The notes under the pieces are model-generated. The model did no database searches, was not told the origin of the DNA, and saw nothing but the letters and a program-made list of their open reading frames with translations. A stretch of DNA of 64,000 bases from SAR202 cluster bacterium bin87. Lineage in GTDB: Bacteria > Chloroflexota > Dehalococcoidia > Lucifugimonadales > UBA3495. The DNA is taken from NCBI GenBank assembly GCA_002238825.1, contig MPNC01000013.1, positions 6,006 through 70,005 of the forward strand, written 5' to 3'. A program made the translations under genes and the position numbers. Shown here one piece after another: positions 50,008-58,358 of this stretch. The stretch's first letter is position 1. Each line of letters starts with the position of its first letter.

Positions 50008-51249
50008 TTAGTCGCCGGCGGTGGCGACGGAGGCCGCGGCCTGCTTCAGGGCCTCGGCCTTGTCGGTGCGCTCCCAAGGCAGGTCCAGGTCGGTGCGACC
50101 GAAGTGGCCATAGGCCGCGGTCTTCCGGTAGATGGGCTGCCGCAGTCCCAGGTCCTCGATGATCGCGCCGGGGCGCAGGTCGAAGTACTCGCGCACCAGT
50201 TCCTCGATCTTCTCGTTGGGAATGTGGTTGGTGTCGAAGGTCTCGATGGCCACGGACGTCGGCTCAGCGACGCCGATGGCGTAGGAGACGAGCACCTCCA
50301 GCCGGTCGGCGAAGCCGGCGGCCACCAGGTTCTTGGCCACGTAGCGGGCTGCGTAGGCGCCGGAGCGGTCAACCTTGGTCGGGTCCTTGCCGGAGAAGGC
50401 GCCGCCGCCGTGGCGGGCGATTCCGCCGTAGGTGTCCACCAGGATCTTCCGGCCGGTGAGGCCGGTGTCACCCTGGGGGCCGCCGACCACGAACCAGCCG
50501 CTGGGATTGACGAAGATCTTGGTGTCGGCGTCCAGCAGGTTGGCCGGGACGATGGGCTCGATGACGTGCTTGCGAACATCATCATAGATCTTCTTGCTGA
50601 AGGCCTCGCGGTCGTCGGTGTCGTCATGCTGCGAGCTGATGACAACGGCGTCCACGCGATGCGGCTTGCCGTAGCGGTATTCCACGGTTACCTGGCTCTT
50701 GCCGTCGGGGCCCAGGTAGGGCAGCGTGCCGTTCTTGCGCACGGCGGCCAGGCGCTCCACCAGGCGGTGGGACAGGTCAACGGTCAGCGGCATCAGGCCG
50801 TCGGTCTCATTGCAGGCGAACCCGACCATCATGCCCTGGTCGCCGGCGCCGGTGGCGCGGCGGGCGTCGGCCTCGGAGCCATTGTTGCGGGCCTCCAGCG
50901 CGGTGCTGACGCCGGCGTTGATGTCCGGCGACTGCTGACTGGCGTTGCGGATGATGCCGCAGGAATAGCCATCGATCCCGTATTTGAGCTCGGTGTAGCC
51001 GATCTCCAGCAGGGTCTGGCGCGTGATGGCGTCGAAGTCCAGGTCAGCCTTGGTCGTGATTTCGCCGGTGACCATGACCAGGTTCTTGCCGGCCACGGTC
51101 TCGCAGGCCACGCGGCTCATGGGATCGACGCTCAGGGCGGCGTCCAGCACGGCGTCGGAAATCTGGTCACACACCTTGTCGGGGTGCCCTTCGGTCACTG
51201 ACTCGGACGTGAGCAGGTACTTGGGCGAGGTCATAAACTGAATTGGCAT
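50008..51249 (-). CDS. metK: S-adenosylmethionine synthetase
   Basis: 413 aa with [17 protein letters not shown] and GGGAFSGKD. Confidence 0.95.
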
Positions 51250-51284
51250 TGTTCGGTTCCTCCGAATGATGTTGTTTTACACAC

Positions 51285-51382
51285 CGTCATACCGGCTTTC
51301 GCCGGTATCCAGGATGTCTTTGCCTCGCTCAGCGTTGTCGGTTCGCGGAGGCTCTGGATTCCTGCAGAAGCAGGAATGACGG
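51285..51382. repeat. two family B hairpins in inverted orientation
   Basis: CGTCATACCGGCTTTCGCCGGTATCCAGG lies at 51285-51313. CTGGATTCCTGCAGAAGCAGGAATGACGG lies at 51354-51382. Confidence 0.8.
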
Positions 51383-51439
51383 TTCTGGTTGCGGGCGGTT
51401 CTGATTGCGGCAGGATGCCTCAGGTCTGAACCGTTACGG

Positions 51440-52711
51440 TTAGGTGCCCTCTTCCCAGCTTTCGTTGTACGCGGTCTGTTCCGCGGTCAGGGTGTCGATG
51501 CTGATGCCCATGGACTCCAGCTTGAGACGGCCCACCTCGGCGTCGATCTCCCGCGGCACCACGTGCACGCCGGTGCCCAGGCTGGAGTGGTTCTTCACCA
51601 GGTATTCGGCGCTCAACGCCTGGTTGGCGAAGCTCATGTCCATGACGGCGGACGGATGCCCCTCGGCGGCGGCCAGGTTGATCAGCCGGCCCTCGCCCAG
51701 CAGGTAGATGCGCCGCCCGTCGGCGATCTGGAACTCCTCGACGAAGGGGCGGACTTCCCGGTGGCTGACCGACATGGCCTCCAGGGCCGGAATGTCGATC
51801 TCCACGTTGAAGTGGCCGCTGTTGGCGACGATGGCGCCGTCGCCCATGACCTCGAAGTGTTCCTTGCCGATGACGTGCCAGCCGCCGGACACGGTGATGA
51901 ACACCTCGCCCTGCTGCGCGGCTTGGAGGCCGGTCATGACCTGGAACCCGTCCATCACGGCCTCCAGGGCGCGCACGGGGTTAATCTCGGTCACGATGAC
52001 CTGGGCGCCCATGCCCCGAGCGCGGGAAGCCACGCCGCGTCCGCACCAGCCGTACCCGCCGACCACGACGCGGCGGCCGGCCCACAGGATGTTGGTGGCG
52101 CGGGTGATACCGTCCAGCGTGCTCTGTCCGGTGCCGTAGCGGTTGTCAAAGAAGTGCTTCGTCTCGGCCTCGTTCACGGCGATGATCGGGTACTTCAGCT
52201 GGCCGTCGGCCGCCATGGCGGTGAGGCGCACCACACCGGTGGTGGTCTCCTCGGTGCCGGCGATCACGTTGGACAGCAGGTCGCTGCGTTCCTTGTGCAG
52301 GATGCCCACCAGGTCGGCGCCGTCGTCCATGGTGACATTGGGGGCATGGTCCAGCACCGCGTTGATGTGCTGGTAGTAGGTCTCGTTGTCCTCGCCCTTG
52401 ATGGCGTAGGTCGGGATCCCGAACTCCTGCACCAGCGCGGCGGCGGTCTCGTCCTGCGTGCTCAGCGGGTTGCTGGCGCAGATCACCAGGTCGGCCCCGC
52501 CTTCCTTCAGGGCGATGGCCAGGTTGGCCGTCTCGGTGGTGACGTGGAGACACGCCGCCATCCGCACGCCGTCCAGGGGCTTCTCCTGGCGGAACCGCTC
52601 CGTGATCATGTTGACGACGGGCATCTCTCGCCCGGCCCAGCGGATCCGGTCAACGCCGGCCGCGGCCAGGGAAAGGTCTTTCACGTCGCCTTGGGTTTTC
52701 TGAACAGTCAA
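51440..52711 (-). CDS. ahcY: adenosylhomocysteinase
   Basis: 423 aa with a TTG start 8 nt after GAGAGG. It has [15 protein letters not shown] and the NAD site GYGWCGRG. Confidence 0.95.
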
Positions 52712-52771
52712 ATCGTCGTACCTCTCATTTTGTGATTGTGTTTAAGTCTGTTGACTATCTGAAGGGCGTAC

Positions 52772-52870
52772 CGTCGTTCCTGCTTCCGCAGGAACCCAGC
52801 AAGGCCGCTGCGATGGGCACATCGGCTGCATGATGCCTCCACTGGATTCCCGCTTTTGCGGGAATGACGA
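52772..52870. repeat. two family B hairpins in inverted orientation
   Basis: CGTCGTTCCTGCTTCCGCAGGAACCCAG lies at 52772-52799. CTGGATTCCCGCTTTTGCGGGAATGACGA lies at 52842-52870, and a partial GGGAATGACGG lies at 52878-52888. Confidence 0.8.
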
Positions 52871-53018
52871 GAGTGATGGGAATGACGGCAGCGGCAGGCA
52901 ATCTCTAGTGCGCCATTCGGGAGACCGCGAGGACTTCCAGCAATCGCTCGATGAAAGTTCCTCGGTTGCCCGTGCCGTTGAAAACGGCGGCCTTGAACTC
53001 CTGCGGCTGCCTGGTCAG

Positions 53019-56962: not shown

Positions 56963-56974
56963 ACTCCGAAAGCC

Positions 56975-58018
56975 TCAGGTCGCGTCCACCGCTCGCCGCA
57001 GCGACTCCGTGTACGGCGGCCGGCACACCATGGTCTCGGTGACGATGCCAGCGATGTAGCGATGGGGCGTCACGTCGAAGGCCGGGTTGTACGCCGGCGT
57101 GCCCTCGGGCGCGGTGGGCGCGCCGCCGTAGCCGGTCACCTCATGCTGCGGCCGTTCCTCAATGGCGATGTCGTCGCCGTGGGCAATGGCCAAGTCCACC
57201 GTGCTCGTGGGCGCAGCGATATAGAACGGGATGTCGTTCTCGTGCGCCAGCACCGCCAGCATGTACGTGCCCACCTTGTTGGCGGTGTCGCCGTTGGCGG
57301 CGATCCGGTCCGCGCCGGTGATGACGCAGGACACCTCGCCCTTCTGCATCAGCACACCCGCCGCCGAGTCGGCGATGAGCGTGGCCGGGATGCCCAACTG
57401 CTGGAACTCCCAGGAGGTGAGACGAGCGCCCTGCAGCCAGGGCCGGGTCTCGGTGTTGTACACGTTGAACCGTCCGCCGGCTTCCCAGCCCGCTCGGATC
57501 ACGCCCAGCGCGGTGCCGAAGGCTGACGTCGCCAGGGCGCCGGTGTTGCAGTGGGTCAGCACGCCCTGGCCGTCGGCGGGCATCAGAGCCCGTCCGTGTT
57601 CGCCGATACGACGGTTGATGGCCTCGTCCTCTTCCTGGATGCGACGGGCTTCCTCTTCCAGGCGGGGCAGGATGCTGCCGGGGTCGGGTTCGACCTCGGC
57701 CACGCGCATCATCCGGCGGACGGCCCAACCAAGGTTGACGGCGGTGGGCCTGGCGGCGGCGATGTGGGCCCCGGCTTGTCGCAGCGCGCCGATGAAGTGG
57801 TCCCGCTCCCGGGACTGCAACTCGGCGGCGGCCAGTACCATGGCGTAGCCGGCGGTCACGCCGATGGCGGGTGCCCCGCGCACGCGCATTTCGGTGATGG
57901 CAGACGCGGCCGCGCGGTAGTCGGTGATGCGGACGGTAACGTGCTCGTGGGGCAGGAGCGTCTGATCCAGGAGCTCCAGCCGGCTGCCCGTCCAGTTGAT
58001 GGGGCGAATTTCGTTCAT
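56975..58018 (-). CDS. mtnA: S-methyl-5-thioribose-1-phosphate isomerase
   Basis: 347 aa with LLDQTLLP, VRGAPAIGV and the eIF-2B-like fold blocks. Confidence 0.9.
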   Translation of the reverse strand: MNEIRPINWTGSRLELLDQTLLPHEHVTVRITDYRAAASAITEMRVRGAPAIGVTAGYAMVLAAAELQSRERDHFIGALRQAGAHIAAARPTAVNLGWAVRRMMRVAEVEPDPGSILPRLEEEARRIQEEDEAINRRIGEHGRALMPADGQGVLTHCNTGALATSAFGTALGVIRAGWEAGGRFNVYNTETRPWLQGARLTSWEFQQLGIPATLIADSAAGVLMQKGEVSCVITGADRIAANGDTANKVGTYMLAVLAHENDIPFYIAAPTSTVDLAIAHGDDIAIEERPQHEVTGYGGAPTAPEGTPAYNPAFDVTPHRYIAGIVTETMVCRPPYTESLRRAVDAT

Positions 58019-58102
58019 AAGTGGGTAGACAATGTGGAGTGCGTATTTGGCGCACTGTGTTACGCTGCGATAATACTGGTGGAATCTGCGTTTTCGACAG
58101 GC

Positions 58103-58135
58103 AAAAATAAAGGCCCACCCGCACTTGGGAGAGCC
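58103..58135 (-). terminator. intrinsic terminator (expression platform of the S-box leader)
   Basis: The minus strand reads GGCTCTCCC-AAGTGC-GGGTGGGCC (8 of 9 pairs) followed by TTTATTTTT. Confidence 0.7.
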
Positions 58136-58150
58136 ACCTTACACAGTCCG

Positions 58151-58297
58151 CCCCTCATCTTTCGTCCCGCCTTGGTATCCGGACGCATCGTGCGCCGAAT
58201 ACCGGGACGCCGGATTTAGCACCTCATCCCACGGGGTGGGCGGGACAGGTTGCCAGGCTTCACAGGGCCGTTCCCTCCGCCTGTCTGAATAAGGGTT
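58151..58297 (-). ncRNA. SAM-I (S-box) riboswitch aptamer
   Basis: The minus strand reads CCCTTATTCAGACAGGCGGAGGGAACGGCCCTGTGAAGCCTGGCAACC...GGTGCTAAATCCGGCG...GAAAGATGAGGGG. All conserved S-box blocks are present, and P1-P4 fold by hand. Confidence 0.85.
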
Positions 58298-58329
58298 CCA
58301 GCAGCGTATACAGTTTTTAACTGCCATCA

Positions 58330-58358
58330 ATACTACCTGCCGGGGTGGTAAATGTCAA
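58330..58358 (-). promoter_or_regulatory. near-consensus sigma-70-type promoter of the S-box leader
   Basis: The minus strand reads TTGACA-17 nt-TAGTAT, about 30 nt upstream of riboswitch P1. Confidence 0.55.

Follow-up and report, generated by a model that had tools for sequence, protein, structure and literature searches.

In Firmicutes, SAM-I leaders of S-box regulons precede operons that serve the recycling of methionine, SAM and methylthioribose, for example metK, mtnKA and mtnWXBD of Bacillus subtilis. The DHAP shunt consists of MtnP or MtnN/K, MtnA and Ald2, and the MTA-isoprenoid shunt of MtnP, MtnA, RLP and a cupin, with the genes often clustered. Two described aryl-sulfate sulfotransferases (ASSTs) are also relevant here. 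AssT of Escherichia coli CFT073 (EcAST, PDB 3elq) is a periplasmic six-bladed propeller of 571 aa with an N-terminal beta-sandwich domain and DsbL/DsbI as partners. Cpz4 (PDB 9kf4, 9kf6), from the caprazamycin pathway of Streptomyces, is a PAPS-independent sulfotransferase of the ASST type; it serves biosynthesis and is not one of the periplasmic ASSTs. It acts on a sugar hydroxyl, and its secondary-metabolite cluster has its own system for the aryl-sulfate donor.

We analyzed a SAM-cycle locus on the minus strand of a 64-kb stretch of contig MPNC01000013.1 of SAR202 cluster bacterium bin87 (the window, whose positions are used throughout). Like the Firmicutes operons, the locus has a SAM-I aptamer and a terminator hairpin before methionine-salvage and SAM-synthesis genes. 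Unlike them, it has one leader and what appears to be one long operon joining mtnA, mtnP, ahcY and metK, with MtnP in place of MtnN and MtnK, no downstream salvage genes attached, and a rhodanese gene and an ASST-like gene embedded; a literature search found no published description of an S-box operon with the latter two. MtnP and MtnA are the first two enzymes of both shunts, but neither the window nor any annotated orthologous operon contains the third (a class II aldolase, or RLP plus cupin), and the gene in its position encodes the unrelated ASST-like fold.

Gene content and riboswitch leader

The minus-strand order is a promoter-like site, a SAM-I (S-box) aptamer, a terminator hairpin, mtnA, the ASST-like gene, memA, memB, mtnP, the rhodanese gene, ahcY and metK. 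A consensus scan gave, as a pattern match only, a putative sigma-70-like promoter at 58330-58358 (TTGACA, 17-nt spacer, TAGTAT; 10/12 matches). The aptamer (58152-58295) matched the full Rfam model RF00162 at 70.3 bits (gathering score 44.4; E 2.2e-14). Reading of the expression platform (58102-58135) revealed a terminator hairpin, GGCUCUCCC-AAGUGC-GGGUGGGCC (58135-58112), followed by UUUAUUUUU (58111-58103); the MFE fold contains the same hairpin, which a simple terminator scan overlooked owing to a single U-U mismatch. At high SAM, the aptamer would favor the terminator hairpin (58135-58102) and transcription would halt before mtnA; at low SAM, read-through would allow expression of the operon. 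An orthologous aptamer lies 5' of mtnA in 14/14 relatives tested, with a single aptamer per locus, and the gene spacing together with the single leader suggests one operon co-transcribed from that leader.

All eight minus-strand genes of the preliminary description were confirmed at their positions. The products of mtnA (S-methyl-5-thioribose-1-phosphate isomerase, 347 aa, 56975-58018; also PF01008), mtnP (S-methyl-5'-thioadenosine phosphorylase, 294 aa, 53497-54381; also PF01048), ahcY (adenosylhomocysteinase, 423 aa, 51440-52711) and metK (methionine adenosyltransferase, 413 aa, 50008-51249) matched TIGR00512 (426.5 bits, cut-off 279), TIGR01694 (320.3 bits, cut-off 274.85), TIGR00936 (627.8 bits, cut-off 497.6) and TIGR01034 (544.7 bits, cut-off 309.4), respectively. 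The gaps from mtnA to mtnP are 133, 12, 35 and 52 nt, within the range first described, with three intervening genes rather than the four then counted. The terminator scan placed a 14-bp GC-rich terminator-like hairpin with a weak T-tract (49948-49979) 29 nt past the metK stop. Beyond it are an RDD-family membrane protein gene (49128-49568; PF06271), found at this place in only some relatives, and a gene for a PGM/PMM-family phosphohexo- or phosphopento-mutase (470 aa, 47693-49105) with four PGM_PMM domains, which scored 288 bits against TIGR03990, below the cut-off of 439. The remaining window genes are ribosomal-protein operons and genes for an RND pump, a Rieske protein, a luciferase-like protein and a hydrolase.

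A check of the whole 64-kb window found no MtnB/Ald2 (Aldolase_II), MtnC, MtnD, MtnK, MtnN, MtnW/RLP or shunt cupin, in agreement with the initial statement that the canonical steps after MTRu-1-P and the DHAP- and isoprenoid-shunt genes are absent from it, and no known downstream salvage or shunt gene was present in seven Pfam-annotated orthologous operons. This absence favors the proposal that the missing downstream step is catalyzed by the ASST-like propeller, which would act on MTR-1-P/MTRu-1-P or 5-deoxy analogues, for example by a lyase-type reaction or by His-mediated phosphoryl/sulfuryl transfer, perhaps with help from the rhodanese. We regard that proposal as distinctly improbable: canonical salvage genes may sit elsewhere in the genome, and the known MTRu-1-P chemistry (dehydratase, aldolase, enolase/isomerase) differs from sulfuryl transfer.

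Conservation of the locus

The order S-box, mtnA, ASST-like gene, mtnP, rhodanese, ahcY, metK and PGM-like gene was found in 26 related Dehalococcoidia genomes (21 genome_contigs loci and 5/6 loci reached via MtnA) and, on this comparison, reads as ancestral. The host clade is one of SAR202-like, sponge-associated and marine Dehalococcoidia and spans a deep divergence, with mtnA identity down to 62% and mtnP about 61%; adjacent genes are separated by 8-70 nt across it. A PGM/PMM-family gene lies 3' of metK in all relatives' loci that are long enough and is the last conserved gene of the block. Junctions in relatives without repeat insertions are 8-120 nt, and only 8-10 nt from the ASST-like gene to mtnP, whereas most spacers of the window's lineage are filled with REP-like repeats. 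These comprise a degenerate hairpin in the mtnA-ASST spacer (56934-56960; GTGGATTCCTGCTTTCGCAAGAACGAC; family of repeats D8/I15, without a T-run after it), hairpins in the rhodanese-ahcY spacer (52767-52870; GTCATTCCCGCAAAAGCGGGAATCCAG; D8 copy at 52767-52799) and a hairpin pair in the ahcY-metK spacer (51280-51384; D8 at 51280-51312 and I15 at 51353-51384). The repeats are an expansion of the ancestral operon and not a sign of a scrambled neighborhood. Two strain variants, L004 and L006, have an identical ASST protein and differing sequence 5' of the riboswitch.

The single-domain rhodanese (119 aa, 53019-53378; PF00581, 51.4 bits; active-site loop CAAGVRS) has its true start at the ATG at 53378, preceded by AGGAGG, and MPRQ opens all orthologues. 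It is present in 27/27 related loci long enough to cover the position, and its active-site Cys is invariant in 28 orthologues, including that of the window's own lineage. By its distribution the rhodanese has the standing of a core operon member, and it is probably active as a sulfurtransferase.

The genes memA (hypothetical membrane protein, 209 aa, 55093-55722; about 3-4 hydrophobic segments of TM length by hydropathy) and memB (207 aa, 54434-55057; ATG at 55057) had been described as DUF4234-like membrane paralogs. The paralogy holds (43% identity over 181 aa, E 9e-51); the family assignment does not, as memA scored 16.8 bits against DUF4234, short of the 25.3-bit cut-off, and a Pfam search gave no match for memB. 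Only 41 homologues of memA were recovered by a word-indexed search. Membrane genes occur in only 9/28 loci, in 0, 1 or 2 copies (memB-like copies in L009, L011, L012, L013 and L074), and distant homologues have unrelated neighbors, with no linkage to SAM genes; therefore an export module, as first suggested, is not indicated. The distribution marks memA and memB as apparently young, duplicating and patchily distributed passengers.

Recurrence between mtnA and mtnP thus applies to the ASST-like gene, kept in 26/27 related genomes, and not to the membrane genes. The exception, the nested relative L089, shows a clean loss, with the same riboswitch and flanks and mtnA directly abutting mtnP. Between a distant subclade and the window, identity is 72.8% for the ASST-like protein, 68.6% for MtnA and 61.4% for MtnP, pointing to an old gene that has changed less than mtnA or mtnP and is under apparently strong purifying selection. 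The gene would have entered the mtnA-mtnP junction in the ancestor of the clade and been retained since.

We considered the possibility that the ASST-like and membrane genes are unrelated to the SAM cycle and ride an existing transcription unit in a genome prone to rearrangement through repeats. The REP-like repeats of the window's lineage, the difference between L004 and L006 5' of the riboswitch despite their identical protein, the fluctuating membrane genes, the dispensability of the ASST-like gene in L089 and the high paralogy of the ASST family in these genomes, where it occupies many contexts, are all in keeping with it. We nevertheless find it rather unlikely, in view of an ASST-like gene that stayed in place at about 73% identity over a divergence in which MtnP fell to 61%, its tight, operon-like junctions, and a rhodanese that is universal in the block with its active site intact; for a neutral passenger, decay or more than one loss among 27 lineages would be expected. 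The related description of a repeat-fragmented neighborhood of unrelated genes likewise gives way to the positions of the ASST-like and rhodanese genes, held across the deep Dehalococcoidia clade.

The conservation also bears on the proposed downstream enzyme. Location between mtnA and mtnP, 8-10 nt from mtnP in many relatives, and retention in 26/27 genomes at higher conservation than MtnA or MtnP speak for it, but the linkage goes back to one ancestral event within a single clade, and L089 lost the gene and kept S-box-mtnA-mtnP.

The ASST-like protein

The ASST-like gene (55735-56841) encodes a six-bladed beta-propeller of 368 aa that matches PF05935 (82 bits) and PF14269 (59 bits), both above gathering. 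The protein, cytoplasmic and lacking both a signal peptide and the N-terminal sandwich domain, consists of the propeller only and belongs to the PAPS-independent aryl-sulfate sulfotransferase superfamily. Its AF2 model (pLDDT 83.8, pTM 0.86) has Cpz4 (9kf4) as best structural match (E 1.6e-16, TM 0.69), and Cpz4 is also the best PDB sequence match (E 2e-9), with homology to both Cpz4 and EcAST also found by HMM. The H-x-N, R-N and Q-H-D motifs are common to Cpz4 and the window protein, at only about 17% identity and with Cpz4 about 100 residues longer. Residues H201/N203/R218/H246 align with H356/N358/R374/H436 of EcAST, whose active-site residues are given in PMC13426309; the alignment to H356/N358/R374 is individually non-significant and relies on the spacing of the motifs and on the alignment with Cpz4. 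The four residues are invariant in 81/81 homologues, whatever the genomic context. The catalytic histidine and sulfuryl-binding residues are intact; therefore His-mediated transfer or hydrolysis of a sulfuryl (or similar anionic) group is the most likely chemistry.

The family comprises about 16,000 clusters and, away from this operon, lies in unrelated contexts that are sometimes sulfur-ester-related. A sulfatase gene is directly 5' of the family member in the alphaproteobacterium L075, TauD and a sulfatase-like gene are near that of L046, and an SsuA/NMT1-type binding protein and GST are near that of many Nostoc. Luciferase-like monooxygenases are among the neighbors of other members. Most contexts hold generic SAR202 catabolic genes (CoA-transferases, acyl-CoA synthetase, P450, amidase), and the sulfur-ester theme is weak. 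Linkage to mtn genes was found in none of 59 other genomic contexts and in none of the multi-domain relatives scanned.

For a role on the methylthio-sugar, it can be said that Cpz4, the closest solved relative, targets the sugar hydroxyl of a nucleoside antibiotic and not a phenol, and that an invariant HHHD/His/Arg cluster could bind phosphate or a metal. Against such a role are the 0/59 contexts with mtn genes and the identical catalytic set in paralogues of unrelated contexts. The new fate for the methylthio-sugar raised in the preliminary description finds no result linking it to the ASST-like gene, which is lost in L089 and has a context-independent catalytic set, and the gene probably does not supply any of the steps missing after MTRu-1-P.

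Cpz4 raises a further alternative, in which adenosine, MTA, 5'-deoxyadenosine or released purine, as nucleosides or by-products of SAM use, would be sulfated or desulfated by the protein for detoxification or tagging alongside MtnP phosphorolysis. Cpz4 sulfates a liponucleoside sugar and all other enzymes of the operon act on adenosyl compounds, yet genes that generate a sulfuryl donor (a PAPS-dependent sulfotransferase, or the PKS of the caprazamycin pathway) are not in the operon, and the contexts of the family elsewhere are not nucleoside-related. We consider this alternative very improbable.

Proposed role in SAM metabolism

The reading that we prefer, and to which we give about an even chance, is a lineage-conserved 'SAM housekeeping' operon under a SAM-I riboswitch, with the ASST-like enzyme co-regulated with SAM status. 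In this operon, MtnP and MtnA convert MTA, and probably also 5'-deoxyadenosine, to the 1-phospho-ketose; AhcY splits SAH into adenosine and homocysteine; MetK synthesizes SAM; and the PGM-family mutase, last in the relatives, may be a phosphopentomutase for ribose-1-P. The place of the ASST-like gene would most likely tie the handling of sulfate esters or sulfur to SAM/methionine status, in the manner of S-box regulons in other bacteria. Because ASSTs pass on the sulfuryl group without setting sulfate free, scavenging would require a further acceptor. The slower evolution of the gene relative to mtnA and mtnP and its exact insertion between them would fit a pathway partner, which is a point against the housekeeping operon. 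If the protein did act on the methylthio-sugar, the operon would represent a new Dehalococcoidia branch of MTA disposal or sulfur recovery. On the preferred reading of a housekeeping operon, a sulfotransferase-like enzyme would be built into the SAM-riboswitch-controlled SAM-recycling operon of a marine/sponge Dehalococcoidia bacterium, with the membrane genes as recent, patchy additions.

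An S-box operon for SAM synthesis and recycling

From 58358 down to 50008, the minus strand holds eight genes behind a leader, namely mtnA, the ASST-like gene, the membrane genes memA and memB, mtnP, a rhodanese gene, ahcY and metK. MtnA, MtnP, AhcY and MetK all scored above the NCBIfam equivalog cut-offs. The leader begins with a sigma-70-like promoter match (58358-58330, minus strand; TTGACA, 17-nt spacer, TAGTAT), followed by a full-length SAM-I aptamer on the same strand at 58295-58152, which scored 70.3 bits with RF00162 against a gathering score of 44.4. Reading the sequence further (58135-58102, minus strand), we found a hairpin formed by GGCUCUCCC and GGGUGGGCC, 9 bp in length with one mismatch, and then UUUAUUUUU; the hairpin recurred in the MFE fold. 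Together, the hairpin and UUUAUUUUU are predicted to be a classical terminator-type expression platform. A sequence scan placed a GC-rich terminator-like hairpin 29 nt past metK, also on the minus strand. The gene and riboswitch models confirm, with minor corrections, the eight-gene SAM-cycle/MTA cluster behind an S-box leader that had been proposed in the preliminary description. The prediction of a single-leader S-box operon that joins SAM synthesis with the first recycling steps for SAH and MTA is secure.

A scan of genome contigs with the ASST-like protein yielded 80 loci. Using the window proteins as tblastn queries, we recovered the order mtnA–ASST–mtnP–rhodanese–ahcY–metK–(RDD)–PGM in 21 loci. 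These all belong to MAGs of Dehalococcoidia or Chloroflexota, and identities fall as low as 62% for mtnA and ~61% for mtnP. The same operon was present in five of six further genomes reached via MtnA homologues. Every one of the 14 relatives tested carried a SAM-I aptamer upstream of mtnA, one per locus, with scores of 64.8-81.4 bits. Junctions are short in the relatives, the ASST-to-mtnP gap being 8-10 nt, and the large spacers of the window operon are occupied by REP-like hairpins. The shared order and leader and the short junctions indicate that the gene order is ancestral and that the repeats merely widened the spacers. The possibility that the region is a neighbourhood fragmented by repeats was therefore abandoned, given the recurrence of the order in the 21 and 5 related loci and of the riboswitch in all 14 relatives. 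In relatives the block regularly ends with a PGM/PMM-family gene, found in the window at 47693-49105, that falls below both the GlmM and PGM equivalog cut-offs; it could encode a phosphopentomutase for ribose-1-P from adenosine.

Repeats and strain variation

Composite repeats of ~110-150 nt with 79-94% identity are scattered through the intergenic DNA of the window in both orientations. A repeat search located copies at 8735-9046, 18341-18461, 22415-22466, 49725-49839 and 58718-59046, so that two of them flank the operon, one immediately before the riboswitch promoter and the other beyond metK. A second repeat family consists of REP-like hairpins of the GTCATTCC-N-GGAATCCAG type, at 22282-22315, 51280-51312, 51353-51384, 52767-52799, 52842-52870 and 56934-56960. 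These hairpins lie in the operon spacers; distant relatives, whose orthologous operons are compact, lack them.

Two homologous loci, L004 (568-2340) and L006 (273-2045), encode a 100% identical ASST-like protein and differ from the window in the block that precedes the riboswitch. Theirs comprises a 321-aa nuclease-like hypothetical protein, a 130-aa hypothetical protein and a Cupin_2 protein; in the window, an alpha/beta hydrolase gene occupies this place (59066-59911). The breakpoint lies in the repeat region, pointing to a strain-level rearrangement. Contigs identical to that of the window were found in two JGI metagenomes (3300027328 and 3300002222) and in Logan run assemblies, and close homologues came from sponge-associated (Geodia barretti) records.

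Other genes of the window include two members of the ‘archaeal’ PaREP1 family (PF05942), at 3846-4238 and 22627-22986, in bacterial DNA. The adjacent ORFs 60110-60805 (231 aa) and 60860-61537 (225 aa) look hydrophobic by eye and have no Pfam match; their GC3 of 0.57-0.60, below the 0.8-0.9 of their neighbours, suggests recent acquisition. A homologue of ComB-type 2-phosphosulfolactate phosphatase (PF04029) lies beside an NHL-repeat protein (10133-10837 and 10949-11896), and is possibly a further organosulfur gene, unconnected to the operon.

The rhodanese is a core member of the operon and an exporter role of the membrane genes is not supported

The rhodanese (PF00581, 51.4 bits) was present in all 27 relatives whose locus spans its position, including the one that has no ASST-like gene, and its cysteine loop, CA[AMV]GVRS, is invariant among 28 orthologues. 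It is thus a core member of the operon. The two membrane genes, paralogues with 43% identity, occur in only 9 of 28 loci in zero, one or two copies, the memB-like form being the older and memA a recent duplicate. Their ‘DUF4234-like’ label had to be withdrawn because memA scored 16.8 bits with PF14018, under the gathering score of 25.3, and memB had no match. We considered the pair as an exporter module, in line with the earlier suggestion that the methylthio-sugar may be exported. This was rejected on the patchy distribution of the genes, the small size of the family (41 detectable members) and the unrelated contexts of its distant homologues, some of which have a zinc-ribbon N-terminus.

The ASST-like gene is retained under strong constraint

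The ASST-like gene (55735-56841) was kept in 26 of 27 relatives. The exception is L089, a closed-looking 4.4-Mb Dehalococcoidia contig in which mtnA abuts mtnP with a 3-nt gap (L089 9077-9080). The riboswitch of this locus is unchanged, and so are its flanks, with ACAD, ETF and NAPRT genes upstream and ribosomal S9 and L13 genes downstream. In a concatenated tree of MtnA, MtnP, AhcY and MetK, L089 was nested within the ASST-bearing clade, which points to secondary loss of the gene. In the distant subclade, identity to the window proteins was 72.8% for the ASST-like protein, compared to 68.6% for MtnA and 61.4% for MtnP, indicating strong constraint on the ASST-like protein. Our search of the literature on methionine salvage in SAR202, on the DHAP shunt in Chloroflexi, on arylsulfotransferases and MTA, and on mtn riboswitch operons did not find this arrangement described, in which an S-box leader and SAM/MTA genes are combined with a conserved ASST-type gene and a rhodanese gene of the core.

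The ASST-like protein is a predicted cytoplasmic, propeller-only relative of arylsulfotransferases

The 368-aa protein passed two Pfam models, PF05935 (82 bits) and PF14269 (59 bits), and its AF2 model is a confident six-bladed propeller (pLDDT 83.8, pTM 0.86). Its best PDB match was Cpz4, the ASST-type sulfotransferase of the caprazamycin pathway (Foldseek E 1.6e-16, TM 0.69; HMM E 2e-9), followed by E. coli AssT (E 3e-5), and close homologues carry the automatic NCBI name ‘aryl-sulfate sulfotransferase’. The active site of EcAST, the AssT of E. coli CFT073, consists of the sulfurylated nucleophile His436 together with His252, His356, Asn358, Arg374 and Thr501 (PMC13426309). In the HMM alignment, His436 corresponded to H246 of the ASST-like protein, in a QQHD motif, and to the WQHD of Cpz4. 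His356, Asn358 and Arg374 corresponded to H201, N203 and R218, in a segment where the EcAST alignment alone is not significant and the Cpz4 alignment agrees. His252 falls outside the alignment, with H116 and H117 as its putative counterparts. H246, H201, N203, R218, H116, H117 and D118 were invariant in all 81 homologues that we compared, which came from Dehalococcoidia, Nostoc, Alphaproteobacteria, Acidobacteriota and others.

Enzymes of the EcAST type have an N-terminal beta-sandwich domain and are exported to the periplasm, whereas the ASST-like protein has neither feature. Its propeller begins at about residue 15, and the stretch behind the RRR motif lacks a hydrophobic signal segment. Tat or Sec export was considered and rejected, as charged residues follow the conserved QTRRR and the model folds this part, at the extreme N-terminus, into a helix and a strand abutting the first blade. 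The sequence and the model together indicate a cytoplasmic, propeller-only relative of the ASST enzymes.

Contexts of the ASST family outside the operon

The family is large, with 16,202 clusters (50% identity) at E ≤ 1e-3 and 1,513 at E ≤ 1e-30. In a neighbor-joining tree, the mtn-linked copies, all except that of locus L026, formed one clade within a large Dehalococcoidia paralogue family, whose sister members adjoin acyl-CoA synthetase/SDR/CoA-transferase, P450/NIPSNAP or amidase/luciferase-like genes. A PF00884 sulfatase gene lies immediately upstream of a family member on the same strand at L075, and TauD and sulfatase-like genes lie near another at L046. Luciferase-like monooxygenases recur near members outside Chloroflexota. 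The Nostoc loci (L047 and L050-L064, ~6800-9900 in each) share a conserved aldo-keto reductase–ASST-like–GST triad, often with an SsuA/NMT1-type binding protein nearby, plus two or three Crp-family regulators. A recurrent sulfur-ester/organosulfur theme among the contexts outside Chloroflexota is suggestive, not strong.

We also examined the multi-domain relatives in the representative library (P0314, P0315, P0321, P0346 and P0456). The top matches, 760-815 aa in length, were candidates for an MtnA-ASST fusion but proved to be tandem double propellers with no mtn part. The others were a fusion to a PLP group II decarboxylase (889 aa) and, in one, a thioredoxin-like/deiodinase region with EF-hands. 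No association with MTA or mtn genes was seen in the other family contexts and multi-domain relatives that we examined.

Salvage and shunt steps beyond MTRu-1-P are absent from the window

Only MtnP and MtnA of universal methionine salvage are present in the window, as judged by their equivalog models. Neither the 64-kb window nor the Pfam-annotated orthologous operons contain MtnB, MtnC (or MtnW/X) or MtnD, and MtnK and MtnN were not found in the Pfam annotation across the window. There was no Aldolase_II match for the Ald2-type class II aldolase of the DHAP shunt in the window or the annotated orthologous operons, and the window has neither a RuBisCO_large match nor a cupin for the MTA-isoprenoid shunt. 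The Cupin_2 gene of L004 and L006 was considered for the shunt and is an unlikely candidate, placed as it is upstream of the riboswitch, beyond the regulated unit and beside nuclease-like hypothetical genes, with no RLP. Pfam matches in the rest of the window belong to ribosomal-protein operons, to an RND pump and to genes of the Rieske, luciferase-like and hydrolase types. Annotation across all 64 kb therefore agrees with the initial view that the canonical genes after MTRu-1-P are absent from it. Clusters of ‘MtnP plus MtnA only’ should not be taken as incomplete pathways without whole-genome checks.

Possible role of the ASST-like gene

We argue that the ASST-like protein would carry out the chemistry of its own family, a His-mediated transfer of the sulfuryl type, because its catalytic set is conserved, the family contexts examined elsewhere show no mtn association and the gene is dispensable in L089. 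Since the chemistry would be the family's own, what the operon gives the gene is most likely regulation by SAM/sulfur status rather than a substrate. In Firmicutes, sulfur-assimilation genes are known to be under S-box control. We also weighed the proposal that the protein acts, via a covalent His intermediate, on the methylthio-sugar phosphates MTR-1-P/MTRu-1-P, on 5-deoxy analogues or on the parent nucleosides, forming with the rhodanese a fourth methylthio-sugar fate or a sulfur-recovery route beyond the universal pathway and the DHAP and isoprenoid shunts. The insertion of the gene between mtnA and mtnP and its slower evolution than the neighbouring genes favor such a role, but the conserved catalytic set fits the chemistry of its own family, no mtn association was seen in the other contexts of that family that we examined, and L089 does without the gene. 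What stands of the new route suggested in the preliminary description is the conservation of the ASST-like and rhodanese genes in the operon; the export step is not supported, and processing of the sugar or a related nucleoside by the ASST-like protein seems to us quite unlikely.

We do not take the operon as evidence of a new route of salvage. It is a lead, of moderate interest, towards the physiological role of cytoplasmic ASST-like enzymes. Physiological roles are hardly established in the PAPS-independent aryl-sulfotransferase superfamily, Cpz4 being the exception (PMC13426309). An ASST orthologous group under a SAM riboswitch, inside an operon of core metabolism, offers a regulatory and metabolic handle for the search for natural substrates, in a lineage that is abundant, marine and sponge-associated. 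SAR202-type bacteria have been linked to the marine cycling of sulfur and recalcitrant carbon. If the ASST-like protein acts on the methylthio-sugar, it would represent a new branch of MTA metabolism; if it handles sulfate esters, organosulfate use would be tied to methionine/SAM status in SAR202-type bacteria.
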